The notes below the pieces were generated by a model. That model saw only the letters and a list, made by a program, of their open reading frames with translations. It was not told the origin of the DNA and did not search any database. Positions 2,851 through 39,752 of a stretch of DNA of 64,000 bases are shown here, one piece after another. The stretch comes from a candidate division WOR-3 bacterium (GTDB lineage Bacteria > Hydrothermota > Tepidihabitantia > SM23-42). The stretch covers positions 23,986 through 87,985 of the forward strand of contig JALVOT010000014.1 of assembly GCA_027026255.1 (NCBI GenBank). Reading direction: 5' to 3'. How positions within the stretch are numbered: the stretch's first letter is position 1; every line of letters starts with the position of its first letter. A program made the translations under genes and the position numbers.

Positions 2851-3033
2851 ATGATTTTTTCTAAACTTCTTAACATCAATCTTTATTCTGGATTTAAAAA
2901 TCGCCATTCAGGAGGGGTGGCGAGTTGTGGTTCAAGTGTTGAGGAGGCATTTAAAAATCTGAAAGAGGCAGTGGAGCTTTATCTTGAAAATGCCCGTGAA
3001 TTAGGATTACTGGAGCAAATTGAAGCTGAATGA
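2851..3033 (+). CDS. HicB-like (UPF0150) antitoxin-family small protein, no HicA partner
   Basis: C-terminal stretch SCGSSVEEAFKNLKEAVELYLENARELGL resembles the HicB/UPF0150 motif (GC.SQG.TLEEAL.NAKEA.ELYLE). No toxin ORF adjacent. Confidence 0.35.
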   Translation: MIFSKLLNINLYSGFKNRHSGGVASCGSSVEEAFKNLKEAVELYLENARELGLLEQIEAE

Positions 3034-3078
3034 TTTTTCAAGGGGAAATTTCATAATTGTATTATTAAAATATATGAA

Positions 3079-3513
3079 TTATTTGCCAAAGTCAATTTTT
3101 ATATTTATATCAGAAGGCACACGAAATCGTAATAAAATTTTAGAATCACCACTTAAGCGTTGTTTTTCAGCTCTAAATAGTATATTGAGATGTATAGAAT
3201 TATCATTTGTTTTTTCTGCTTGATTAGTAGTATTAGAAGAAAAATGATGTAGGTGTGCTTTTATATTGAGATATCCAGAAAAAGTGTTGTTCAATTTATC
3301 GATTGTTAAATAGCCAATAGCATCGGTTGTTCCTTCTGACAAGGAATATAGAAAACCATTAGCTTTATGGTAAAGAAATGATTTTATGGAGTCAGATTCA
3401 ATATTTACTGAGTCCATCAGGCAAGTATTAAATTTAATACATAAGAAATAATTATGTTGTATAACATCAAGATCATACATACTTGGTGATGCATAGTATC
3501 CATAGATTACCAA
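3079..3513 (-). CDS. Hypothetical protein, possibly an orphan toxin-tip remnant (TTG start)
   Basis: 144 aa ORF lying directly 3' of a degenerate Rhs core-end relic (3522-3545) but out of frame with it. No recognisable motif. Confidence 0.3.
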   Translation of the reverse strand: MVIYGYYASPSMYDLDVIQHNYFLCIKFNTCLMDSVNIESDSIKSFLYHKANGFLYSLSEGTTDAIGYLTIDKLNNTFSGYLNIKAHLHHFSSNTTNQAEKTNDNSIHLNILFRAEKQRLSGDSKILLRFRVPSDINIKIDFGK

Positions 3514-3521
3514 TACAGAGT

Positions 3522-3545
3522 AGTTTCCTTAAGGGGTTATTGATA
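3522..3545 (-). repeat. Degenerate relic of the Rhs core 3' end (encodes ..NNPLR..)
   Basis: ccttaaggggttattga matches the block encoding VNNPLRF at 7555-7571 and 5624-5640. Confidence 0.4.
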
Positions 3546-3562
3546 CCTTTAGTAACATAGTA

Positions 3563-4024
3563 TCAAATTCCTACAACCAAAAGCTGCAGGAATTTTGGCC
3601 CCATCCATAGAGCGAACCAGGTATTATCACCCTTAATTCGCAACCAGAACCACATAAGTAGAATTACCGCTATTGAACCAAGTAAACAATACCAGCCACT
3701 GATGGTTAAAATTAAACGTAATAACAATGGCGGTTCGAATTTCTTGCTGGCCTTACGAAGTTTAAGAGAAAATATAAAGATGAATATTCCGATCAGAACC
3801 AGAGGTGTTAAACCGATACGCAAAGGGGTAGTATCAGCAACCGTTGGGAATAAATCTGCATACCGTGACCAAGCATCCCAGAGTCTTAATACATATTCAA
3901 AAATGGTATTGAAAATAAAACGTGCGAGTATAGAGTATGGGAAATAGAAAGCAAAAGCACTAAAGAGAATTATAACTGCCCCTAAGAGAAATTTTTTAGT
4001 GAAGAAGTCTTTTATTTGCAGCAT
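3563..4024 (-). CDS. Small polytopic membrane protein, candidate Rhs-toxin immunity protein (paralogue of 4556-5050)
   Basis: 153 aa with about 4 TM segments; shares blocks with the 164-aa protein (PLRIGLTPLVLIGI vs SLRIALTPLLLIGI; ISGWYCLLGSIAVILLMWF vs ICGWYCLVMTSIVILAMWF). Lies just 3' of a cassette-junction relic carrying an intact promoter. Confidence 0.5.
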   Translation of the reverse strand: MLQIKDFFTKKFLLGAVIILFSAFAFYFPYSILARFIFNTIFEYVLRLWDAWSRYADLFPTVADTTPLRIGLTPLVLIGIFIFIFSLKLRKASKKFEPPLLLRLILTISGWYCLLGSIAVILLMWFWLRIKGDNTWFALWMGPKFLQLLVVGI

Positions 4025-4112
4025 TAATGCTCCTATTTATAAAAGTGTGAATTGACCCATTTTTTAGCAAAATAATATTCATCTTAGAGCGAATTTTCAC
4101 ATATTTCCTATC

Positions 4113-4225
4113 TGATAAGTAGTTTATCCCATTTTCGTCAAGTCTGCTGCCCGTAGTCTTTAATTTCTTCTCCATCTTTCCTTATTGATAATTATAGCAA
4201 AATTATCAAGGATTTCAAGATTTTT
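4113..4225 (-). repeat. Degenerate relic of an orphan Rhs-CT cassette 5' junction (leader plus first ~25 codons, no toxin domain)
   Basis: About 75-80% identical by eye to 5733-5840. Minus strand reads MEKKLKTTGSRLDENGINYLSDRKY, compare orphan cassette MKNELKTFSKELDENNLNYFCQRYY. Confidence 0.55.
4191..4218 (-). promoter_or_regulatory. Conserved cassette promoter (TTGAAA, 16 bp, TATAAT, 15-nt leader) in the relic cassette
   Basis: Same box sequence and spacing as the orphan-cassette promoter at 5803-5830. Confidence 0.5.
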
Positions 4226-4247
4226 TTTGATTCTTACGCATTTTTAT

Positions 4248-4532
4248 TTAGAATAAGAATATGTTGTAAATGTCTGTATGAATGCGGTTTAGCAATGTCC
4301 TTATGGATAAAACAATGCCTGTCAATCCAAATATGAAGTTTATTAATCTAACATAAGATAATTTTCTTTTGTCTTTATATGTCAGACCATACATTACTGC
4401 AATTATACTGAAAGGAATGCCTAACACAGGCTGGGTAGATAAAATCAAACCCATAATTACCCATACAAATTTATCAAAAATATTACTACTTGAATAATTA
4501 GTATCCATATTTTTTTTCTTGTTGATGAACAT
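4248..4532 (-). CDS. Small membrane protein (2-3 TM), function unknown
   Basis: 94 aa hydrophobic ORF between the two immunity-candidate paralogues. Confidence 0.4.
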   Translation of the reverse strand: MFINKKKNMDTNYSSSNIFDKFVWVIMGLILSTQPVLGIPFSIIAVMYGLTYKDKRKLSYVRLINFIFGLTGIVLSIRTLLNRIHTDIYNIFLF

Positions 4533-4555
4533 TATATATTAAATACATAATTATC

Positions 4556-5050
4556 TTAAGGCCCAGCTGGCATATAAATTGGCGCTCCGCTTAAATAGCC
4601 ATTCAGAAAATGGCCATAAACCATTATAAAAACGCTTGATTTATCAGGCCAAGTAAATGCACGAATTTGTATATCAAACCACATCGCAAGAATTACTATG
4701 CTTGTCATAACTAAACAATACCAACCACAAATCAATGAAATCCATCTAAGATTTATTAAACGATTAACTTTGCATATTGAAGATAATTTCTGTAACAAAA
4801 GAAAAAGTAGTATACCAATGAGTAGTAAAGGTGTAAGAGCGATACGTAAAGAATTTATACTGTTGGGAAGTGCTGATGTTGACAACCAGAACCTGGTTGT
4901 ATAATTCCATATAGTAACAAAGATGAACTTGGCTAAAATAGGGTATGGCAAATACCCGGCGATAAAAGCAATTATTATTGTAATTATGCCGATTGCAGCT
5001 CTATTCAGAAAAAGCTTATGTTTTGCGACTTCACCCAGTGCATTTATCAT
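4556..5050 (-). CDS. Small polytopic membrane protein, candidate immunity protein for the orphan Rhs toxin
   Basis: 164 aa; start overlaps the stop of the orphan toxin ORF (5047-5050), the usual toxin-immunity arrangement; paralogue of 3563-4024. Confidence 0.5.
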   Translation of the reverse strand: MINALGEVAKHKLFLNRAAIGIITIIIAFIAGYLPYPILAKFIFVTIWNYTTRFWLSTSALPNSINSLRIALTPLLLIGILLFLLLQKLSSICKVNRLINLRWISLICGWYCLVMTSIVILAMWFDIQIRAFTWPDKSSVFIMVYGHFLNGYLSGAPIYMPAGP

Positions 5051-5787
5051 TTTCTATAGAAATAAAAATAAACCCATCTATTTGCGAAGAGATGGCCTGA
5101 ATTATTTGCTTTTCTGTGAATTATGTTCCACCAAGATAGGTCAGTCCTTGTCCAACCGTGGGCACGTAGCCAAATAATTTCAGCAAATTCATGGGCAAAA
5201 GATTTTCGTAGACTCCAAGTCTTATTCCATTGCATTTTATTAATTTTAAACTCCCATATTGTCAAAATCTCATTTTTTGGATTACCTGCAACAGATTTTC
5301 CCAGGTGTTCAACAATCATATATTCAAATTTAGACACTTCAGCCCAATAATCTATTGTGGCAAGAAATCCAGAATTTTCTTTTAACCAAGATATTGCATT
5401 AAGAATATCATCTAAGGTTATTTTTCCCCCCGGATGATAACTTTCCCAATCATCATATGTAATTTGATCCAGCATCTTTTCAAGACTGCGCATTGCGTTC
5501 ATTAACTTACTTTGTCTTCTCAGTTGTTCCATATGAATAAATGTCCACCATGAGGGGTCGCCAGCGTCTACGGGACTTTCTTTTTTAGATTCCATCATTC
5601 TTTCACCAGTAGGGTCGGTAAACCTTAAGGGGTTATTGACACAATAGGCATAGGGAGATGATGCAGGGGAATTCTCAGGGTCCAACCTCAAAAACCTCCC
5701 AATCTCTGCCTCATAATACCGCTGGCAGAAGTAGTTAAGATTGTTTTCATCAAGTTCCTTGCTAAAGGTCTTTAATTCATTCTTCAT
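5047..5787 (-). CDS. Orphan Rhs C-terminal toxin cassette (Rhs core tail plus unrecognised toxin domain)
   Basis: 246 aa. N-terminus MKNELKTFSKELDENNLNYFCQRYYEAEIGRFLRLDP...YAYCVNNPLRFTDPTG duplicates the end of the full-length Rhs core (FDENNLNYFCQRYYEAEIGRFLSLDP...YAYCVNNPLRFTDPLG), then diverges completely. Confidence 0.65.
   Translation of the reverse strand: MKNELKTFSKELDENNLNYFCQRYYEAEIGRFLRLDPENSPASSPYAYCVNNPLRFTDPTGERMMESKKESPVDAGDPSWWTFIHMEQLRRQSKLMNAMRSLEKMLDQITYDDWESYHPGGKITLDDILNAISWLKENSGFLATIDYWAEVSKFEYMIVEHLGKSVAGNPKNEILTIWEFKINKMQWNKTWSLRKSFAHEFAEIIWLRAHGWTRTDLSWWNIIHRKANNSGHLFANRWVYFYFYRK
5612..5762 (-). repeat. Direct repeat of the Rhs core 3' end (orphan copy)
   Basis: 41-bp block 5612-5652 is identical to 7547-7587; about 70-bp block 5690-5762 is near-identical to 7640-7712. 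The spacer between blocks differs. Confidence 0.8.
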
Positions 5788-5802
5788 TTTTCCTTCTTGA
5801 TA

Positions 5803-5830
5803 ATTATAGTAAAATCAAGTGATTTTTCAA
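5803..5830 (-). promoter_or_regulatory. Internal promoter of the orphan toxin cassette (TTGAAA, 16 bp, TATAAT, 15-nt leader with AAGGA)
   Basis: Read on minus strand: -35 at 5825-5830, -10 at 5803-5808, ATG at 5785-5787. Confidence 0.5.
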
Positions 5831-5955
5831 GAAGATATTTCATCGCCCGGTATTTTATTTTTCTGGAAAAGTTGTGTATTAACAGAGGAAAATAATTGTG
5901 GAATCGAAACAAGTTGAAGGAAAATAAATATAAGTTAATTATTCCACAGCGTTTG

Positions 5956-6747
5956 TTAATGAAACACACCTCGTATATTCAATATTACCGATATTAATAC
6001 GAAAATATTAAAGCTCACAAAATAACCAATCGGTAATAACAAAGAATGTCGTTTCCAATATAAGTAAATTACGAGCAGTCCATTAAATAAAATCCAGATT
6101 GTGTTAATGATACTAAACTGATTGTGCGAGAATATTATCCCATGGCACAATGTGAAAATTATGGTAGTAACTATTGCACCAGTTTTAATACCCATCTTTT
6201 TAGCAAAAGCAGGGAATGCAAATCCTATGAAAAATATAGATTCTCCAATTGGTCCTATGATACTTACAATAATTGCGCGTGAGAAGTTTATGTAATAATT
6301 AATTTGATTGGAGGCAATAAACTTTGGTACTTTTGGTAAAATATTGTTGCCTGTAATTATGATTGGTAGTAATAATATAAGTTTTAAACATAAAGCCAGG
6401 ATAAATCCAGTAAAAAAATAAATTAGCCACCTATCGGATCGTAAACCTAAAGTTCTTAGTGATCCAAATTTTCTCAGTTTTATCCATAATATAGGCACAA
6501 ATGTGTAGAGAAGTTGATTAATCATTAAGCATAATATAACTATATACCAACGTTTTTTAAGATAAGTTAATAATATTGAATAAAGTTCTGAATTTTTTTC
6601 GAAATGTGAGAAATCTATATGTGTAGGTGAAAAGATTTTAAATGAAATTATGACCAAACTCAAATATATTAAAATAATAAGAAAAAAGGTCACGACGACA
6701 TCAGTTATACCCCATTTTACATTAAGTATCTCATTAGATTTGTTCAT
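5956..6747 (-). CDS. Polytopic membrane protein with degenerate CPBP/Abi-like motifs, candidate immunity protein for the full-length Rhs toxin
   Basis: 263 aa, about 7-8 TM. GPIGESIFFIGF and FTLCHG...SHNQF loosely match CPBP motifs (EExxxR, FxxxH, HxxxN) with catalytic positions substituted. First gene 3' of the Rhs toxin; extremely AT-rich. Confidence 0.4.
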   Translation of the reverse strand: MNKSNEILNVKWGITDVVVTFFLIILIYLSLVIISFKIFSPTHIDFSHFEKNSELYSILLTYLKKRWYIVILCLMINQLLYTFVPILWIKLRKFGSLRTLGLRSDRWLIYFFTGFILALCLKLILLLPIIITGNNILPKVPKFIASNQINYYINFSRAIIVSIIGPIGESIFFIGFAFPAFAKKMGIKTGAIVTTIIFTLCHGIIFSHNQFSIINTIWILFNGLLVIYLYWKRHSLLLPIGYFVSFNIFVLISVILNIRGVFH

Positions 6748-6951
6748 ATTTATCTTATGCTGGCAATAATTGTACAGCGATATTTCGATTGAAGAAAATA
6801 ATAATCAATGGTCTTGATACGATATTCGATTTGAGGTTATCTGTAATGAATAATCGAACTTATTCAGAAATTTATAAAAATGCAAACTGTATAGGTGGTA
6901 TCGCATCTGTAGTCCTGGTTAAATATCTATATCTGATGTGATATATAGCCA

Positions 6952-9900
6952 TTAGCTTAAGCCCCTGGGAATAGGAAGAATTTCTTTTTCCTCTTTTTTG
7001 GTGGGTTCAGACGGTTTTCGCCACCAGGCTGGTGGAAACATATTTTTATAGTAATCATCGTTCCACATTTCATCGAGTTCCTCGATTGGTAATTTATTAT
7101 AACCACGAGGAGGATAAACGATATTCTTCGGATGATGTATATTCTCAAAAGCAGGCTGCCTTTCTTTATGTTTTTCTGGTTGAGGTAGATTAGGTTCGTT
7201 CGGATAGAAAGATGATTTGGGGATAATCTGTTCTAATGATTCGATGAAGTTCTCGCCAAGAATTATGTATCCAGACAATTGGAGTATAATACCTACGTAA
7301 TGTGTTATGGGGTGAGGGTACGCTTCAAGCATTACTCCCAAATTAATTAATTCTATTTCAAGCTGTGAGCCTTTCACAGTTTCTAACGCTTGACTGCCCA
7401 AATTTTTTGTTGTATTATAGAACACTTTTATTTTTGTTTCAATATTTGCTTCAGAATTTTCAAAAAATAGATTCAACCCTGATTCATGGCCAATGAATTC
7501 GTAATAATCGTTTGGCGACATAAAGAGAGGTACCTGCAGCCCCAATGGGTCGGTAAACCTTAAGGGGTTATTGACACAATAGGCATAACGGTTCTGGGAT
7601 TGAGGAACTTCAATATAACCACCAAAGGGATCAAGAGACAAAAACCTTCCGATCTCTGCCTCATAATACCGCTGGCAGAAGTAGTTAAGATTGTTTTCAT
7701 CAAATTCCTTGCCGGTGAAGGTATGGGTGTTATCAGCAGTACCTGATTTTGTTATTTCACCGAATGGATAATAATATGCAGTCCAGACCACTGAACCCGA
7801 TTCATCGGTCATCTTCCTTGATGAACCTAAAACATCACAATGATAAAAGGTGGTATCTGCACCATCAATCCTTGCAATATGTAATCCACCGGCATAGACA
7901 TACCTTGCCAGTATTGAACCATCCGGGGAATATTCAATAAGCGGATTTATACCGTCATAAACATAGTAAATCGTATAGTCAGTTGTTGTATTAATTCCGG
8001 ATGTAGTTATCTCACCATAGCCGTTGATTTCACCACCGAATGTTTTATTGGTGCCGGGAAAGACATCAACTGCATTTGAACCACCCTGATGCAGGGTATC
8101 AACATTCACAGGTAAACCAGGGTCAAAGGTTGAGATGGTCCACCGCAGGGGACCATAATGATTTAATAACTGTTTGGAGATCTTTATCTGGATACTGCCA
8201 TCAGGACCAATAATCCGTTCCACTGTCATACCAGAGGGCATTACAGTCTTTGTGCCGTCTGCCCTGTAAAAACCGTATTCTCCATCGTCTATATATAGAC
8301 AGTATTCCCAGGCAGCATTTTTTGGCACCTTTGTCTTCATATCTTCTGGTAAGGTAATTCTACCCGAATTTGGAATCGTGTCAAGGTCTAAGGTGATAAA
8401 GAGCTTTAATCGGCTGACCTGGGCAAAGATATATCGGTTGACGACGGTAAAGATATAATACCGGGCGGTATTTTTTATGTAGACTTTTTCAATATCAAGT
8501 CCTTTATTATATACTGTATCCGGACCGGATGATTTGAATCCTAAGTCGTTTGCTGCATCAGTGAATAGGGTTCTTGAAGTTATCCCTGTGCCGGGAGTTA
8601 ATTTATGATAATGTTTTTTGACCCTGAGGCCGGAACTGTTATAGGCATAATCAATGGTTTCAGGACCTTTTTTATAATAGATTAGCCGATTATTCCAGTC
8701 ATAGGCAAATGAATCGACCAAACTGCCTGAGGAATTGTTGCGTTTAATAATATTACCATTGTCATCATAATAATACTCATAATCTCTGTGGTCGGTTTTT
8801 AGCCGGTTGGTATTTGACCAGTATGAATATGAGTTACCATTTTTTGCAGTGCGGTTTCCTGTTTTGTCATAGCTGAATGATTGGATACCTGCTAATTGGG
8901 TGACCGCGGTGAGTCGATTCAGGGCATCATAGGTAAAGGTCTGGGTGTATCTGCTGTTAAGATAGTCGGTAATTGAATGGATATTGCTGTTATCTTCGTA
9001 AGAATAACCGAGTTTTAGAATATCACCGGTTTTATAAGCCCTCACCAGGATTGGACGAAGCCGGGAATCATAGGTTATTGTATCCACTACCCCGTTATCA
9101 TAACTTAGCTTTACAATCTGACCTGCAGGATTATATTTAAAGGTTGTTAAAAGACCGGGGACGGATTTTATCTGGCCGAGTCTATTGTATCGGTATTTTA
9201 TTTTGTCGTCTGTTGATAAATAGATCAGGATGCACTGGTTCGCATAATTAAAATTATAGGTAAACGATTTTTCACCACTCAGACCTACAATATTAACCCT
9301 TTTGAGTCCTAATCTGCCTCGATCATCATAGTAGTATGTTATTGAATCTATTCCGCAGGTAACAACTTTACTCAGTCGACCCGTAGGATTAGCCAGTTCA
9401 TAAGGAGTTGGTCCTCCGGTCGTAATATCATAGGTCAGTCTGACTTTATCTGCCCAGGTGGAGCCATTATCGGTTGAAAGTTCTATTTTGGTCAAACGGT
9501 TGATATTATCATAGGTATACCGAACCCATCCATTCGGGTCTTTTTTTAGCGTTAAATTTCCCAGGTCATTATATTCATCATAGAGCACATCAACTGGGTT
9601 ACCATTGTAATAATATGAAGATGTTGCATCCGGACCATCCACACCACGCAATCTGCCAAGGGTATCATAATAGTATTTTGTCACCCTCCCTTCGGCATCG
9701 GTCACTTTTGTCAATCTGCCGAGGGTATCATATTGATAACAGGTGCGGTTATTATTGGCATCAATGATTGTATCAATTGCGCCGTAGGCATTATAAATAT
9801 GGATGGTTTTATTACCCTTTTCATCAATGATGGTGTCGGTATTGGCATAGTATTTTACCTGAGAATATTTACCATCAGGATGGGTTATTTTTATAATGCG

Positions 9901-10257
9901 TCCCAGAGCATCATACTCATAGGTGGTAATTTGAGACCAGGAAGGTGAACTATAACTGTATGATGTACCGAAGATTGTATAGGGGTTACAAACTGAATCT
10001 TTTTTACTGTTTTTATTATAAGAAATATTCCGGATAATCGTCCGGGCGTTATCAAAATCAAATTTTTTGGTTTGAATCAGTTTACCAAATCCATCATAGA
10101 AGTTTTTACTTACTATCCAGTATGTAGCCCCAGCTTCGTCGATGAAGTCTATTTTTATCGAATCAATAACTGCAGATGGAATTTCAAAGTCTTTATAGGT
10201 AATTCTCCGGGATGCTGAAGATTCATTGGGCTGGAAGGTTTTTATTAATCGGCTCAT
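6952..10257 (-). CDS. Rhs/YD-repeat protein with C-terminal polymorphic toxin domain of unrecognised family
   Basis: 1101 aa with many YD repeats (YDALGRII, YDTLGRLT, YDALNRLT). Rhs core end FYHCDVLGSSRKM...YAYCVNNPLRFTDPLGLQ, then about 210 aa unique C-terminus ending in a Pro/Lys-rich tail. No signal peptide or PAAR-like N-terminus visible. Confidence 0.85.
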   Translation of the reverse strand: MSRLIKTFQPNESSASRRITYKDFEIPSAVIDSIKIDFIDEAGATYWIVSKNFYDGFGKLIQTKKFDFDNARTIIRNISYNKNSKKDSVCNPYTIFGTSYSYSSPSWSQITTYEYDALGRIIKITHPDGKYSQVKYYANTDTIIDEKGNKTIHIYNAYGAIDTIIDANNNRTCYQYDTLGRLTKVTDAEGRVTKYYYDTLGRLRGVDGPDATSSYYYNGNPVDVLYDEYNDLGNLTLKKDPNGWVRYTYDNINRLTKIELSTDNGSTWADKVRLTYDITTGGPTPYELANPTGRLSKVVTCGIDSITYYYDDRGRLGLKRVNIVGLSGEKSFTYNFNYANQCILIYLSTDDKIKYRYNRLGQIKSVPGLLTTFKYNPAGQIVKLSYDNGVVDTITYDSRLRPILVRAYKTGDILKLGYSYEDNSNIHSITDYLNSRYTQTFTYDALNRLTAVTQLAGIQSFSYDKTGNRTAKNGNSYSYWSNTNRLKTDHRDYEYYYDDNGNIIKRNNSSGSLVDSFAYDWNNRLIYYKKGPETIDYAYNSSGLRVKKHYHKLTPGTGITSRTLFTDAANDLGFKSSGPDTVYNKGLDIEKVYIKNTARYYIFTVVNRYIFAQVSRLKLFITLDLDTIPNSGRITLPEDMKTKVPKNAAWEYCLYIDDGEYGFYRADGTKTVMPSGMTVERIIGPDGSIQIKISKQLLNHYGPLRWTISTFDPGLPVNVDTLHQGGSNAVDVFPGTNKTFGGEINGYGEITTSGINTTTDYTIYYVYDGINPLIEYSPDGSILARYVYAGGLHIARIDGADTTFYHCDVLGSSRKMTDESGSVVWTAYYYPFGEITKSGTADNTHTFTGKEFDENNLNYFCQRYYEAEIGRFLSLDPFGGYIEVPQSQNRYAYCVNNPLRFTDPLGLQVPLFMSPNDYYEFIGHESGLNLFFENSEANIETKIKVFYNTTKNLGSQALETVKGSQLEIELINLGVMLEAYPHPITHYVGIILQLSGYIILGENFIESLEQIIPKSSFYPNEPNLPQPEKHKERQPAFENIHHPKNIVYPPRGYNKLPIEELDEMWNDDYYKNMFPPAWWRKPSEPTKKEEKEILPIPRGLS
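7547..7712 (-). repeat. Rhs core 3'-end segment repeated at 5612-5762 (master copy)
   Basis: See 5612-5762. Confidence 0.8.
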
Positions 10258-10260
10258 AAT

Positions 10261-10288
10261 AGATTACCCGGAACTTTAAGGATGTAAA
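10261..10288 (-). promoter_or_regulatory. Possible promoter of the Rhs gene (TTTACA, 16 bp, TAATCT, 3 nt before ATG)
   Basis: Correct spacing but a weaker -10 than the other promoters in this window. Confidence 0.3.
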
Positions 10289-10464
10289 TGTGTGGGATGT
10301 ACTGAGGGCGATTGGCATTCAAAGTGCAGTAAATATCGTTGTTGATAAGAATTTTGAGGGTAGTATTACAGTTTATCTGGGAAAGGTTACTTCAGAACAG
10401 GGATTGAAGAAGCTGCTTGAGGCAAACGGTTTTCTCCGAAGAAAAAAGAGAATTATTTTTTTGT
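10263..10464 (+). pseudogene. Gene fragment with secretin-N/STN-like motif; no canonical start, runs into stops
   Basis: Frame reads ..NFKDVNVWDVLRAIGIQSAVNIVVDKNFEGSITVYLGKVTSEQGLKKLLEANGFLRRKKRIIFL*, resembling the N-terminal domain motif of secretins and TonB-dependent receptors (DVLRAL...NIVVD...G.VT..L......AL..LL.ANGL). Only about 60 codons. Confidence 0.3.
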
Positions 10465-10652
10465 AAAGAAAAGATTAAAAGAACGATTAAAAAAGTTTAC
10501 AGCCGCTGATGGTAAACTCGGTTTGAATGTGAAGAATGCATCGAGAGATGAAAATTATTTCCGGTATCGGATCGGGGTTTGCATCTGAACTTTCCATCCT
10601 CCAGATTTTGTTTTTTTAACTCAGGATAAAAATTCACTGCTCCACTTATTGC

Positions 10653-12213: not shown

Positions 12214-12241
12214 ATTATAAATATAAACCGATAAAAGTCAA
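12214..12241 (-). promoter_or_regulatory. Leaderless sigma70-type promoter for arcC (TTGACT, 16 bp, TATAAT, 5 nt to ATG)
   Basis: -35 at 12236-12241, -10 at 12214-12219 on the minus strand. Confidence 0.55.
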
Positions 12242-14315: not shown

Positions 14316-14343
14316 ATTATATAAATTTATAAATTTTTGTCAA
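14316..14343 (-). promoter_or_regulatory. Leaderless sigma70-type promoter (TTGACA, 16 bp, TATAAT, 6 nt to ATG)
   Basis: -35 at 14338-14343, -10 at 14316-14321 on the minus strand. Confidence 0.55.
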
Positions 14344-24048: not shown

Positions 24049-24197
24049 ATATTCTGGTCTGTCCAAAGTGTAAGGGTGAATTGGAATATGACCAGAAAAA
24101 TCAGGAGTTAATTTGTCACAAATGTAAACTTGCCTATGCAATAAAAGATGATATTCCTATTATGCTTATTGAAGAGGCAAGGAAATTGAATGATTGA
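24027..24197 (+). CDS. Trm112/YcaR-like small zinc-ribbon protein (56 aa; below ORF-track cutoff)
   Basis: [56 protein letters not shown]; AAGGAGG SD at 24016-24022. Confidence 0.6.
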
Positions 24198-27100
24198 CCT
24201 TGCACTGATAGTTTTCGTTATTGCAGGGACAGATATCCGAACAGTTGAAGACGGTGTTATAGTATCATTTTCAATGACAAAGGTTGAGGCGGAAAGTCTT
24301 AAAATCCCTGATGCGCGGTGGTTAAATAAGGTCGGTGATCCGGCACTGCCTTGTTTACACTATAAATTCGGTATCCCACAGAATGGTGAGGTTGCGGTTT
24401 CGATACTGGAGAATGATGAGGCGGTGATCGATGGTCAGAAGATTGACCCAGTGGTTGAGTTGGGTATTAAGGAATCGGCACCCCGGGATACAGAATTATT
24501 CCGCAGTGAAGTCTATAAAGAAAATAAGTTTTTCCCTCACAATTTGGTTGTTGTTTCCGAACCGGGATATCTGCGTGATCTCTATACAGTTGATGTGCGG
24601 ATTAATCCGGTCCGTTATAACCCGGTGAAGAACCGGGTGCGTTATTCGAGAAGATTTATTATAAAAATAAAGTTTAAAGGTAAGCCGTTCATTAATGCTC
24701 CTTTTGATACTACATTTGAAAGGGTAATGCGCCATCTGGTTGATAATTATGAGCAGTGCCGTCTCTGGCGTTTGACACCATCACGGAATGGGACAAATCC
24801 ATTTGCCCAGGGAACCTGGTTTAAGATAGCGGTTGAAAAAGAGGGGATTTATCGGATTGGCTATAAAGAGATTAAGAATGCCGGGATCGACCCTGCCCAA
24901 TTTGACCCCAGGACGATGCGGATTTATACGGCAAAATTTGACCTCTTAACACGGAGCGTTCCATTGCCTGATTCACTCGATTCATTGGTTGAAATCCCCT
25001 GTTTTGTTCAGGGTGAATCAGATGGGGTGTTTAATAAAGATGACTATCTTGTTTTCTACGGCTATCCAGCAAGCCATTTTATTCCTGATACCTCAATTTC
25101 CTGGTTTTATAATGGATATGCAAAAAAGAATATCTACTGGTTTACATTTGGTGGAAAATATGGTAAGAGGATGTCGAGGGTAGATGCCCGTTATAATGGA
25201 GACCCTGTCGATACCCTGGTACAGGAGGTGCTGCATTTTGAAGAGGATAATGGTAATCCGACGCGTTCTGGCATAAACTGGTACTGGCAGGAGGTTTCCC
25301 CGGGTGAGGGTCAGGGCGCTGAAACCTCGGTTAATATTGAACATCCCTTTGCAGCGGGAGATGCCCGTATCAGCGCCAGCCTTTTCGATTCAATCGGGGT
25401 GAGCGGTCCATTTATTTATCGTTTTTCCGTAAATGATAATATAGCTTATAATGAGACCTTATCGCTCAGTTCTCACTGGTCATTTCCTCCCCAGTATTTT
25501 AATATCGAGACATCCTTAAAAGGTGATTCCTCTATTTTTAAGATTGAACTCATCCGACCCCAGGGGGTGGAAGGCAAGATGCTTGCCTGGTTTAATGCCC
25601 TTGATATTCTTTATCAGCGCCTCACCCGATTGACAGAACCTTTCCATGCATATTTTTCGGCACCCGAAGATTACTCTATCAAATGTGATGATGCAGAAGA
25701 ACCGGTTTTTGTCTTTGATATTTCTGATATACAAAATCCCAGGATGTTGTATAATTTAAAGCTGGATAATGGAAAACTTTATCTTTCAGGAACCTGCGAT
25801 TCTTTTCAGCTGCTCTATTTTTGTAAACTTGGTTCGACTGAACCGGTTAAATTGATTCCCGCCAAACCGGGAAAATTACGCGAGCATTCTTCTGGATGCC
25901 AGTATCTTATAATCACCCATCCGAAATTTTCTAAGGCGATAATGCCCCTTGTGCACTACCGCAGCCAGGACTATACAGTTAGGGTGGTGAATATTTATGA
26001 AATCTATGATGATTTTTCATACGGAAAGTTTGACCCCTTAGCGATTAAGCATTTCTTTTATTATGCCCTTAATAACTGGGATGTCTTTCCGAGTTTTGTG
26101 CTTTTGGTGGGTGACGGCACATACGATTATAAGAATAATCTTCATAAAGAAAATCCTCCCAATTATATTCCGATGTATGAAACAGGGAGTCTTTTAATCG
26201 GTAATCCCGGAATTCCTCCGAATACAATTTATGAAGGTGAATATACCGATTTTGGAGGCGGCGAGTCAGTTGCCTCAGGCAGAATCACGGTCAGGACCAA
26301 TGCCGAGGTCAGGGACTTTATTGATAAGTTAATTACCTATGAGACGAAAAATATTGACGGTATCTGGAATCAAAGGATTATCCTTGCCGGTGATGATGAG
26401 TATGCGGGAAACCACTGGGAAGGACCGGATATGCACTGTGGCGCCTGTGAGGCTATATTCAGGAATGTCCCGGATTCTCTTTATAACTTCGCCAAGATTT
26501 ATATGATAAGTTATCCGCCGTTTCCACCCTACGGAGGTCAGGTCAATAAGGTGAATGCCCGCAAGGCATTTATTCGGGAATTGAATAAGGGCGGTTTTGC
26601 CGGAGTCTATTTCGGCCATGGCAATACTCATCAGCTTGCCCATGAAGGGCTCTTCTATGATATTTATATTCCCGAAATAAATAATGGGAGACGATGTTAT
26701 TTCTTTTATTTTGGTTCCTGCACCGTAGGAAGGTTTGATGATTCGGATTATGAATGTATCGGTGAGGAATTTGTGCGGATTAAAGACGGCGCAATCGGCA
26801 CGATGGCATCAACCGGTGGCACCTATGTGCAGGGTAATGTGGCTATCGGTAATACTCTTTTTAGACTGATGACCTCACCGGATAGTGATTTGACAATGGG
26901 CGAGTGTTTTCGCATCGCCAAGGTGTATGGAAGCCCGTCATATCTTCTTATCGGTGAGCCGGCAACGAGATTAAGAAAAATAAAGACAAAAATGACATTG
27001 ACTGCCTTGAGTGATTCATTGAAGCCCCTTCAAAGGTTGAAAGCGGTCGGGTCTGTCCCTTATTATTATCTTGACGCCTTTGTTCGTGATACTACACATA

Positions 27101-28023
27101 TCGAGAAGTTTGATGCTACAACCCAGGATAAGATTAGTGGTCATGTCTATCGGTTGGTCCAGACCGGACGGAATGCCTGGAAACCGTTTGATTATCAAAT
27201 AGATGGTAAAGAGATATATTCAGGATTCTGGGATGATGATACTGCGAAGATGATTGTTCCGCAGGTATCTACGGTAAACCGCCCGGTAGTAAAATTGACC
27301 TATTGCGCCAATCGCAAATCTGGTTCGCTCGATTCAATTCTGATTTATGGGGTGGCATCACCTTCATCTGATGATCAGGGACCGCAACTAAAACTTTATG
27401 ATCAGGCAAGGGTTTTACAGAATGGGGATTGGGTGGATAAGGATTTTATCCTTACCGGTCGGGTTGCTGATATGAGCGGCATTAATCTGCTAAATTCAGT
27501 TGAGGACATCAATCGCGGTTTTTATCTCTATATAAATAATGATATCGATAATAGGATTGATTTAAGAGACTATTTTACCTATGATAAGAATTCCTATACA
27601 GATGGAACATTTAATGTGAAGATTAGCCTGCCTAATCCGGTTGATACAATTAAGATAAATGTTGCGGATAATAATTATAATCAGACATATCAGAAACTTA
27701 TATTAAATACCGATATTTATGAATCGGTTAAGATTTCTAATTTTCTGGTCTATCCAAATCCGATTACAAATGACGCCGGGGTGTGGTTTACATTTAACCT
27801 TTCAAGTTCAGCCCTGGTTAATTTAAAGGTCTTTACAATTGCAGGACGACTTGTAAAGACAATCGATGATTTCTACTGTCGAGCCGGTTATAATCAGAAA
27901 TTCTGGGATGGTCTTGATGATTCGGGTCAGCCTCTTGCTAATGGAGTTTATCTGGTCAGGGCATATTGTGAGAAGGCTAACGCCCGGACTGAAGTGATTG
28001 AAAAATTTATTATCGCCCGATAA
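24190..28023 (+). CDS. Gingipain-like cysteine peptidase (family C25) with T9SS-type C-terminal sorting domain
   Basis: 1277 aa; C25 catalytic dyad context [10 protein letters not shown]...[15 protein letters not shown]; C-terminal about 80 aa ([20 protein letters not shown]...[10 protein letters not shown]) resembles the T9SS CTD beta-sandwich. Confidence 0.7.
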
Positions 28024-39724: not shown

Positions 39725-39752
39725 TTGACAAGTAATAGTTATTAGATATAAT
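39725..39752 (+). promoter_or_regulatory. Leaderless sigma70-type promoter (TTGACA, 16 bp, TATAAT, 6 nt to ATG 39759)
   Basis: Perfect consensus hexamers. Confidence 0.6.

Follow-up and report, generated by a model that had tools for sequence, protein, structure and literature searches.

The locus described here is an Rhs toxin locus in a stretch of 64,000 nucleotides (nt) of contig JALVOT010000014.1 of a candidate division WOR-3 bacterium (assembly GCA_027026255.1). This whole stretch is referred to as the window, and all positions are counted within it. All genes of the rhs locus (10257..3079) are located on the minus strand and consist of a full-length main rhs gene, followed by three displaced modules that are increasingly decayed (Table 1). 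The main gene (10257..6952) contains the shell-forming YD/RHS repeats by which Rhs polymorphic toxins are recognized (Pfam RHS_repeat, PF05593, E value of 3.4e-36, in 5 stretches; RHS, E value of 2.5e-11; TIGR01643, E value of 9e-23; and a YD_repeat_2x match). It also contains an Rhs-associated core domain (TIGR03696, Rhs_assc_core, E value of 6e-20), which ends in the motif PxxxxDPxGL (here PLRFTDPLGL, with DPLGL as residues 903-907, encoded at 7537-7551) and is followed by a variable C-terminal tip. No PAAR or VgrG domain was found in the main Rhs protein with Pfam, a sub-threshold DUF6443 match being the only further hit. The next gene codes for a CPBP/Rce1-like membrane protein, which is, by its position only, a putative immunity protein for the main tip. 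The locus was probably shaped by C-terminal displacement, resulting in a full-length Rhs gene with a CPBP-type immunity gene, followed by an array of displaced tip/immunity pairs.

The module nearest to the main gene (module 1) is likely an intact cassette, with a predicted sigma-70-type promoter, a leader with a Shine-Dalgarno (SD) sequence, an ATG start codon, the end of an Rhs core, a predicted toxin, and an overlapping gene for a predicted immunity protein. A first-pass annotation of the window had reported an orphan open reading frame (ORF) of 246 amino acids (aa) that runs into a different C-terminal domain, and this ORF was found exactly so, at 5787..5047. Its head consists of about five new codons joined to the last ~55 codons of an Rhs core, the first ~61 residues corresponding to the last two-thirds of the Rhs-associated core domain. 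Residues 10-61 match positions 22-75/76 of TIGR03696 with a score of 49.6 bits, above the curated cut-off of 32.5, which supports the earlier designation as an orphan Rhs-CT (C-terminal toxin) cassette. As expected for a displaced module, the orphan starts with a core 3' fragment that includes PxxxxDPxG and is homologous to the main gene, and its tip, which is unrelated to the main tip, has its own downstream immunity gene. The 5' end of the main gene was considered as the source of the orphan head, because KTF occurs in both N-termini, and was rejected; TFSKELDENN of the orphan aligns with TFTGKEFDENN of the core with a 3-nt gap, and the region upstream of the main rhs gene has no similarity with this head.

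Two blocks of the core fragment are shared with the main gene. A repeat search returned the pairs 5689-5762/7639-7712 (block A; 74 nt, 96% identity, three mismatches, longest perfect run of 52 nt) and 5612-5652/7547-7587 (block B; 41 nt, 100% identity), differing by at most one base from the repeats reported before. In main gene and orphan alike, the encoded peptides are (F/L)DENNLNYFCQRYYEAEIGRFL and YAYCVNNPLRFTDP, and the 105 nt coding for the two shared peptides contain three differences between orphan and main gene, all of them synonymous. In other lineages, 2-9 of the 27 nt that code for LNY[FM]CQRYY and 4-5 of the 24 nt that code for YAYCxNNP differ from the main gene. As these lineages diverge more, the identity of the blocks exceeds what protein conservation accounts for, and indicates recent common descent or in-genome gene conversion. 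However, the 13-18 residues between the blocks are unrelated (LRLDPENSPASSP in the orphan, LSLDPFGGYIEVPQSQNR in the main gene; a length difference of 15 nt), and the orphan fragment ends in DPTGE instead of DPLGL. A linker of the type SPASSPYAYC...DPTG(A/E) goes with this tip family elsewhere (P0014, L167, and P0002-P0005), and a DPF(G/R)GYI..PQ.QN linker like that of the main gene occurs on at least one different tip (L173). Because near-identical blocks flank an unrelated linker of the type of the tip family, the orphan core fragment is a mosaic. The duplication of the core 3' end that had been proposed in the first-pass annotation is thus only partly right, the fragment being more than a plain copy. 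The simplest reading is a C-terminal displacement, followed by gene-conversion patches that would have homogenized blocks A and B; such a mosaic would imply past sequence exchange between the main and orphan copies.

Table 1. Features of the rhs locus, in the order in which they are met along the minus strand.
Feature	Position in window	Strand	Remarks
Main rhs gene	6952..10257	-	1101 aa; YD repeats and Rhs-associated core domain at residues 829-907
Block A, main gene	7639..7712	-	Encodes ..KEFDENNLNYFCQRYYEAEIGRFL; 96% identical to 5689-5762
Block B, main gene	7547..7587	-	Encodes YAYCVNNPLRFTDP; 100% identical to 5612-5652
Main C-terminal tip	6955-7536	-	194 aa; no family match
CPBP/Rce1-like multi-pass membrane protein	5956..6747	-	263 aa; Pfam PF02517, E value of 4.4e-10; hydrophobic segments
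Module 1, promoter-like site	5803..5830	-	TTGAAA, 16 nt, TATAAT; 11/12 consensus; ends 15 nt before ATG
Module 1, leader and start	5785..5802	-	Leader tatcaagAAGGAaaaa, then ATG; SD-like AAGGA 4 nt before start
Module 1, orphan rhs-CT ORF	5047..5787	-	246 aa
Orphan residues 1-62	5602-5787	-	Head and core 3' fragment, ending PLRFTDPTGE
Orphan residues 63-246	5050-5601	-	184-aa tip domain of no described family
Module 1, 164-aa membrane protein	4556..5050	-	3-4 hydrophobic segments; start overlaps orphan stop (ATGA)
Small ORF	4248..4532	-	94 aa, or 86 aa from internal ATG; two hydrophobic segments
Module 2, promoter-like site	4191..4218	-	TTGAAA, 16 nt, TATAAT; TG just upstream of -10; 11/12 consensus
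Module 2, stub	3996..4175	-	Decayed, 59 aa (MEKKLKTTGSRLDENGINYLSDRKY... / MEKKLKTTGSRLDENGINYL...); head and degraded block A, toxin part deleted
Module 2, immunity paralogue	3563..4024	-	153 aa; overlapped by stub; BLASTP 39% identity to 164-aa protein, E value of 7e-23
Third core-end vestige	3527..3546	-	..GINNPLR..; 19/20 nt match to block B; 16 nt past immunity-paralogue stop
ORF after third vestige	3079..3417	-	112 aa; gene in ENA record; no Pfam or NCBIfam match

The tip of the orphan (residues 63-246) has two related protein clusters only in an exhaustive HMMER search of 1.84 billion representatives, namely P0013 (50% identity, E value of 4e-31) and P0014 (37% identity, E value of 5e-13). 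As both align with it end to end, across the whole tip, the copy in the window is full-length. The tip is found on long Rhs core sequence in the metagenome loci L167, L005, and L173/174, and in P0014 (L005) and the L167 version of P0013 it follows ~290 or more residues of core closely resembling the main core of the window. Since its relatives carry it on a long Rhs core, this domain is a genuine Rhs tip. The relatives of tip and immunity protein surfaced only by exhaustive HMMER and alignment-based searches; word-seeded searches matched the orphan only via its N-terminal ~60 residues and gave nothing for the immunity protein alone, and a scan of genome contigs with the orphan returned no relative. 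A metallopeptidase reading of the sequence AHEFAE in the tip was rejected, as it is not an HExxH motif and its histidine is a serine in P0014.

Homologues of the 164-aa protein (138-159 aa) are encoded directly after the tip in L005, L006/L167-170, and L173/174, a gene order that is conserved in four independent loci. They are 34-42% identical to the 164-aa and 153-aa proteins of the window, with the motifs PYP, LRIALTP, WYC, and MWF in common. In addition, an immunity homologue without a toxin occurs in L171/172 and in module 2 of the window. Immunity genes usually show such a combination of conserved pairing and stand-alone copies, and the 164-aa protein is likely the cognate immunity protein of the orphan tip. 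Hence, the immunity gene proposed in the first-pass annotation is backed by a gene order that is kept after each relative of the tip in other metagenomes. The toxin/immunity pair of module 1 is a previously undescribed family, with a multi-pass membrane immunity protein. It may be speculated that an immunity protein embedded in the membrane suggests an envelope target for the toxin. The small ORF beyond the immunity gene has no counterpart downstream of that gene in L005 and L006.

Promoter-like sites were scored against TTGACA/TATAAT (12 positions), with the sigma-factor specificity of the host taken from the pattern of the window itself. The site at 5830..5803 has the hexamers, the spacing, and the 15-nt leader that had been described before, and a paralogous head precedes module 2 (4218..4191), the -35, -10, SD sequence, and ATG being intact in both. 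The two heads are 76% identical from the -35 to the ATG (roughly 89%, by manual count, over the -10/SD/ATG stretch), versus 47% in the 40 nt upstream, and the immunity genes are 62% identical. As the homology of the heads begins at the -35, the promoter belongs to the repeated unit. Furthermore, sites of at least 11/12 occur 18 times in the window, compared with 2.5 ± 1.6 times in Markov simulations, an enrichment of about 7-fold; all but one of the 18 have a 16-nt spacer and about 11 lie just upstream of ORF starts, as read against the ORF list. The head of module 1 resembles these strong sites of the genome, and the TTGAAA-16-TATAAT sequence at 5830..5803 is probably a real promoter. Within 500 nt upstream of the main rhs gene, no site exceeds 8/12. 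At the position homologous to the orphan promoter, the main gene consists of coding sequence without a counterpart, and the only nearby sites are one of 9/12 at 7868..7840 and one of 11/12 at 7442..7414, the latter downstream of the motif. Several strong sites elsewhere in the window, for example at 12214-12241 (minus strand), 39725-39752 (plus strand), and 14316-14343 (minus strand), end only 5-7 nt before a start codon, and these very short leaders suggest that leaderless or near-leaderless mRNAs may be common in this organism.

Similar heads were encountered in a survey of short Rhs tips, covering 80 metagenome loci with related core ends out of more than 600 public matches. A site of at least 10/12 that ends within 32 nt of the start precedes 7 of the 11 independent short tips, against a background of 0.5% when random positions of these loci are examined for such a site that ends 3-35 nt upstream. 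L003 contains three paralogous short Rhs-CT genes, with TTGACA-17-TACACT, 6 nt, and ATG, of which the head homology starts a few nt upstream of the -35. Altogether, cassette-type heads were seen in the window (two), L003 (three), L006, L089, and L091, and the promoter-headed short tips of L003 and L091 are far from any full-length rhs gene. The exact promoter-leader pattern of the window (CTATAATTATCAANAAGGAAANATG) had no match in the JGI metagenomes. L006 and L167 were considered as one head on different core positions, which was rejected, as they represent one locus differing by a 50-nt deletion. It is doubtful that displaced tips in this Rhs clade are in general self-contained expression cassettes, with the -35 as their 5' boundary and with promoter, start codon, and a short core fragment copied along with each toxin/immunity pair.

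Two further groups of short tips were noticed in this survey. The first occurs in L089 (3349), L091 (5905), and L097 (2213), three different metagenomes, and has the leader peptide ..SNF(T/S/P)LPTYYGY in common, which joins ENHCDALGS in L091 and FCQRYY directly in L089 and L097; a TTGACT-16-TA(A/C)AAT site is located just upstream in L089 and L091, and the L091 gene stands alone between housekeeping genes. The second group consists of proteins of ~361 aa in L127 (5821-6906), L129, and L153, with a hydrophobic N-terminus (MITFIAKKVARPAIIITLIFTALLAWPVF..), a Rhs core end of ~100 residues, and a tip of ~257 aa, preceded at 28-32 nt by TTGACA-17-TAAAAT or TATATT and followed by a small ORF. The hydrophobic N-terminus could be a signal peptide, in which case these proteins may be mini-Rhs toxins that carry an export signal themselves. 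Some tips could then be made, and might even act or be exported, with no Rhs shell.

The first-pass annotation had described a single cassette; this description fits module 1, but a second promoter-headed module and a third vestige, which together with module 1 form an array, had been missed. Module 2 has lost its toxin and kept its head and immunity gene, which points to selection for immunity expression. The 112-aa ORF after the third vestige may be, as a guess, the leftover immunity gene of that vestige. At the far end of the array, on the opposite strand, a 60-aa ORF (2851-3033, plus strand) gave a sub-threshold HicB-like antitoxin match (PF15919, E value of 5.5e-4) and is probably a truncated antitoxin gene. 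The array borders the pstSCA operon at its end.

According to the proposed mechanism, each module would be transcribed from its head and not depend on the main gene, which lacks a promoter of this kind. The main selected effect of the head would be a steady supply of immunity protein, which would protect against neighbors deploying that toxin. The orphan toxin polypeptide itself, having neither an Rhs shell nor an export signal, could not be delivered as it is. The perfect identities of 52 and 41 nt would permit rare homologous recombination or gene conversion, through which the orphan tip could be placed in frame on the main core. Indeed, a simulated crossover in either block yields an in-frame Rhs protein with the orphan tip, of 1086 or 1091 aa, and the role as recombination substrate that had been suggested for the shared blocks is plausible.

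Several features of the main gene and its surroundings stand apart from the array. Residues ~560-800 of the main Rhs protein (about 7860-8580) include a stretch of ~200 residues without YD repeats (..LDLDTIPNSGRITLPEDMKTKV..TISTFDPGLPVNVDTLHQGGSNAVDVFPGTNKTFGGEINGYGE..), which is conserved in the relatives P0014, L167, and L173 and may be a domain inserted in the shell. Inside the main gene, a TTGACA-16-TAGAAT site (8357-8384, minus strand, 11/12) coincides with the codons for LDTIPNSGRITLPED; in L005, its homologous counterpart (1024-1051) reads TTGACA-16-TAGACT and lies exactly at the called start of the long orphan P0014, so that these sites could represent a conserved internal promoter or merely conserved coding sequence. 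The 11/12 site at 7442..7414 (TTGAAA-17-TATAAT, minus strand) is located inside the main tip, ~100 nt past the DPLGL codons and ~670 nt upstream of the CPBP-like gene, and may serve the main immunity gene as an internal promoter. In the 440-nt stretch upstream of the main rhs start, a broken opposite-strand ORF (10263-10466, plus strand, and in other frames to about 10650; ..VNVWDVLRAIGIQSAVNIVVDKNFEGSITVYLGKVTSEQGLKKLLEANGF..) resembles the STN or GspD-N0 domain that secretins or TonB-dependent receptors have at their N-terminus (Pfam E values of 1e-4 and 3e-4, below cut-off), and has the appearance of a gene remnant bordering the rhs island. Elsewhere, the window codes for a 1277-aa C25 (gingipain-type) peptidase with a propeptide and a C-terminal FlgD-Ig-like domain (24190-28023, plus strand), and Rfam and tRNA scans of the whole 64-kb window returned nothing. 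When clustered at 90% identity in a collection of 15 billion proteins, housekeeping proteins of the window remain singletons, and among the matches listed, its Mfd fragment reaches 51-59% identity to species representatives from many phyla and no more than 59% to any of them; together, this points to a poorly sampled lineage.

A number of observations weigh against the interpretation of the locus as a displaced array with working cassettes and a usable store of tips. The orphan tip has no match in Pfam, NCBIfam, or PDB profile searches, and AlphaFold models were unusable, both for the 246-aa protein alone (predicted local distance difference test score, pLDDT, of 36) and for the tip with a three-sequence alignment (pLDDT of 44). 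Among the ~25 ORFs scanned out of the ~50 ORFs of at least 144 aa in the window, neither a secretion apparatus nor a PAAR/VgrG partner nor a type VI secretion system (T6SS) gene was found. The promoter calls are consensus matches in AT-rich DNA, and the sigma-factor specificity comes solely from the pattern of the window. As to recombination, perfect identity extends over only 52 and 41 nt, versus 522 bp of homology in Salmonella (PMC3967940), and exchange would be rare because the shared homology is short. Moreover, a simple deletion-type recombination would remove the immunity gene of the main tip, and siblings still deploying the main toxin could kill such a recombinant. Tip exchange should therefore be rare and may, as in Salmonella, need a prior duplication.

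Three other explanations deserve consideration. The promoter-headed pair might act inside its producer as a type II toxin-antitoxin (TA)-like module that regulates growth or stabilizes the locus, instead of providing immunity and a reserve of toxin. With its own ATG, SD sequence, and near-consensus promoter, the toxin polypeptide is probably made, the overlap of toxin and immunity ORFs (ATGA) is seen in many TA operons, Salmonella rhs-CT modules with internal promoters offer a precedent (PMC7043789), and promoter-headed short tips away from a full-length rhs gene (L003 and L091) would fit. A TA-like role is nevertheless unlikely, given that the immunity protein is a multi-pass membrane protein and not a soluble, labile antitoxin, that selection appears to act on immunity in module 2, where promoter and immunity gene outlasted the toxin, and that immunity homologues without a toxin exist elsewhere. 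The cassette might also be a functionless, decaying remnant, its hexamers being chance matches in AT-rich intergenic DNA and its modules silent or read through. This would agree with the visible degradation of modules 2 and 3, with the classic orphans of E. coli EC93 and Salmonella, which are without initiation signals (PMC3150448, PMC3967940), and with the AT-richness of the region, where a loose threshold of 9/12 yields 60 sites versus 38 expected. It is quite improbable in view of the enrichment of the sites of at least 11/12, mostly at gene starts, the position of two 11/12 sites at homologous places with SD sequence and ATG conserved, the full-length tip, and the recurrence of promoter-like heads in other lineages far above background.

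Finally, the repeated blocks might be an assembly artefact, resulting from chimeric joining or repeat collapse in a metagenome contig, as the first-pass annotation had cautioned. The source is indeed a metagenome assembly, and Rhs loci are repeat-rich, but the repeats of only 41 and 74 nt are below typical read length. In addition, an ENA scaffold is identical to window positions 3047-7787 (4741 nt), and a Logan contig of another run (SRR13622960) is identical to positions 3803-5056, though it ends downstream of the orphan head and both blocks. Furthermore, the architecture of tip, immunity gene, and further orphans recurs in unrelated samples such as L167. An artefact is extremely improbable. 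The displaced array with a promoter-headed first module is, in contrast, the reading that agrees best with this evidence, and it can be compared with the orphan modules known from other bacteria.

A C-terminal displacement model has been formulated before (Jackson 2009, PMC2935791), and the principle as such is established for enterobacteria as well as for bacteria of the bee gut. In Salmonella Typhimurium, the displaced pair rhs-CT(orphan)/rhsI(orphan) of STM0292 is located directly after the main rhs gene and its immunity gene (Koskiniemi 2014, PMC3967940; Starsta 2020, PMC7043789). The homology of 522 bp is 95% identical there, and recombination fuses the orphan tip to the main core, recombinants having been observed (PMC3967940). 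Similarly, the orphan of the window contains a core 3' fragment that includes PxxxxDPxG and is homologous to the main gene, and the pair is placed after the main rhs gene and its immunity gene. The Salmonella orphan has no normal translation-initiation signals (PMC3967940); its promoter, P2, is located within the coding sequence for the core, in the main as well as the orphan gene, together with a weak CTG start, and the modules show TA-like behavior (PMC7043789). In Salmonella, transcription of tip and immunity gene does not depend on that of the delivery part, which resembles what is proposed, from sequence, for the window cassette. However, the window homology amounts to 74 and 41 nt only, promoter, SD sequence, and ATG are situated in non-coding DNA and only at the orphan heads, nothing comparable is seen in the main gene, and toxin and immunity protein belong to unrelated families. 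A shared internal core promoter upstream of PxxxxDPxGL in both genes, of the type described by Starsta, was not found in the window.

The E. coli EC93 cdiA-CT/cdiI and Dickeya dadantii 3937 rhs-CT/rhsI orphans form tandem arrays after a full-length gene, each orphan starting with a fragment that contains the conserved motif, and orphan immunity is expressed and protective (Poole 2011, PMC3150448). The window contains the same arrangement of tandem tip/immunity pairs downstream of a full-length gene, each opening with a conserved-motif fragment. The orphan toxin of EC93 is without an initiation codon, and the cdi promoter upstream drives its co-transcription (PMC3150448), whereas modules 1 and 2 of the window have their own near-consensus promoter and start codon. 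The Rhs loci of Snodgrassella alvi, which are linked to T6SS, contain long arrays, in which many of the orphans have a translational start site and are transcribed (Steele 2017, PMC5727410). The farther from the 5' end of the locus, the lower the expression, an effect ascribed to a promoter at the locus start, and no dedicated cassette promoter has been described (PMC5727410). The window array likewise keeps its start sites, but differs in having cassette promoters and no T6SS link in the ORFs scanned. The absence of own initiation signals, which is typical of EC93 and Salmonella orphans and not universal, does not apply to the window orphan, in which ATG, AAGGA, and TTGAAA-16-TATAAT are present. 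As S. alvi orphans keep their start sites too (PMC5727410), such signals do not exclude membership of an orphan module.

Judged by its sequence, the window cassette is a genuine orphan Rhs-CT/immunity array, in agreement with known arrays in every structural feature that could be tested. It offers a clean case, from an uncultured bacterium, of an Rhs locus that would store spare tips and keep immunity genes switched on. If the promoters are active, expression of immunity to toxins that the cell does not deploy itself would not depend on the main rhs gene, and this would bear on the coexistence of strains in natural communities. Compared with the known orphans, the cassette differs in two respects, namely a toxin/immunity family not described before and a near-consensus promoter, SD sequence, and ATG of its own in non-coding DNA, indicating that the repeated cassette unit can include a promoter instead of borrowing one from the main gene.

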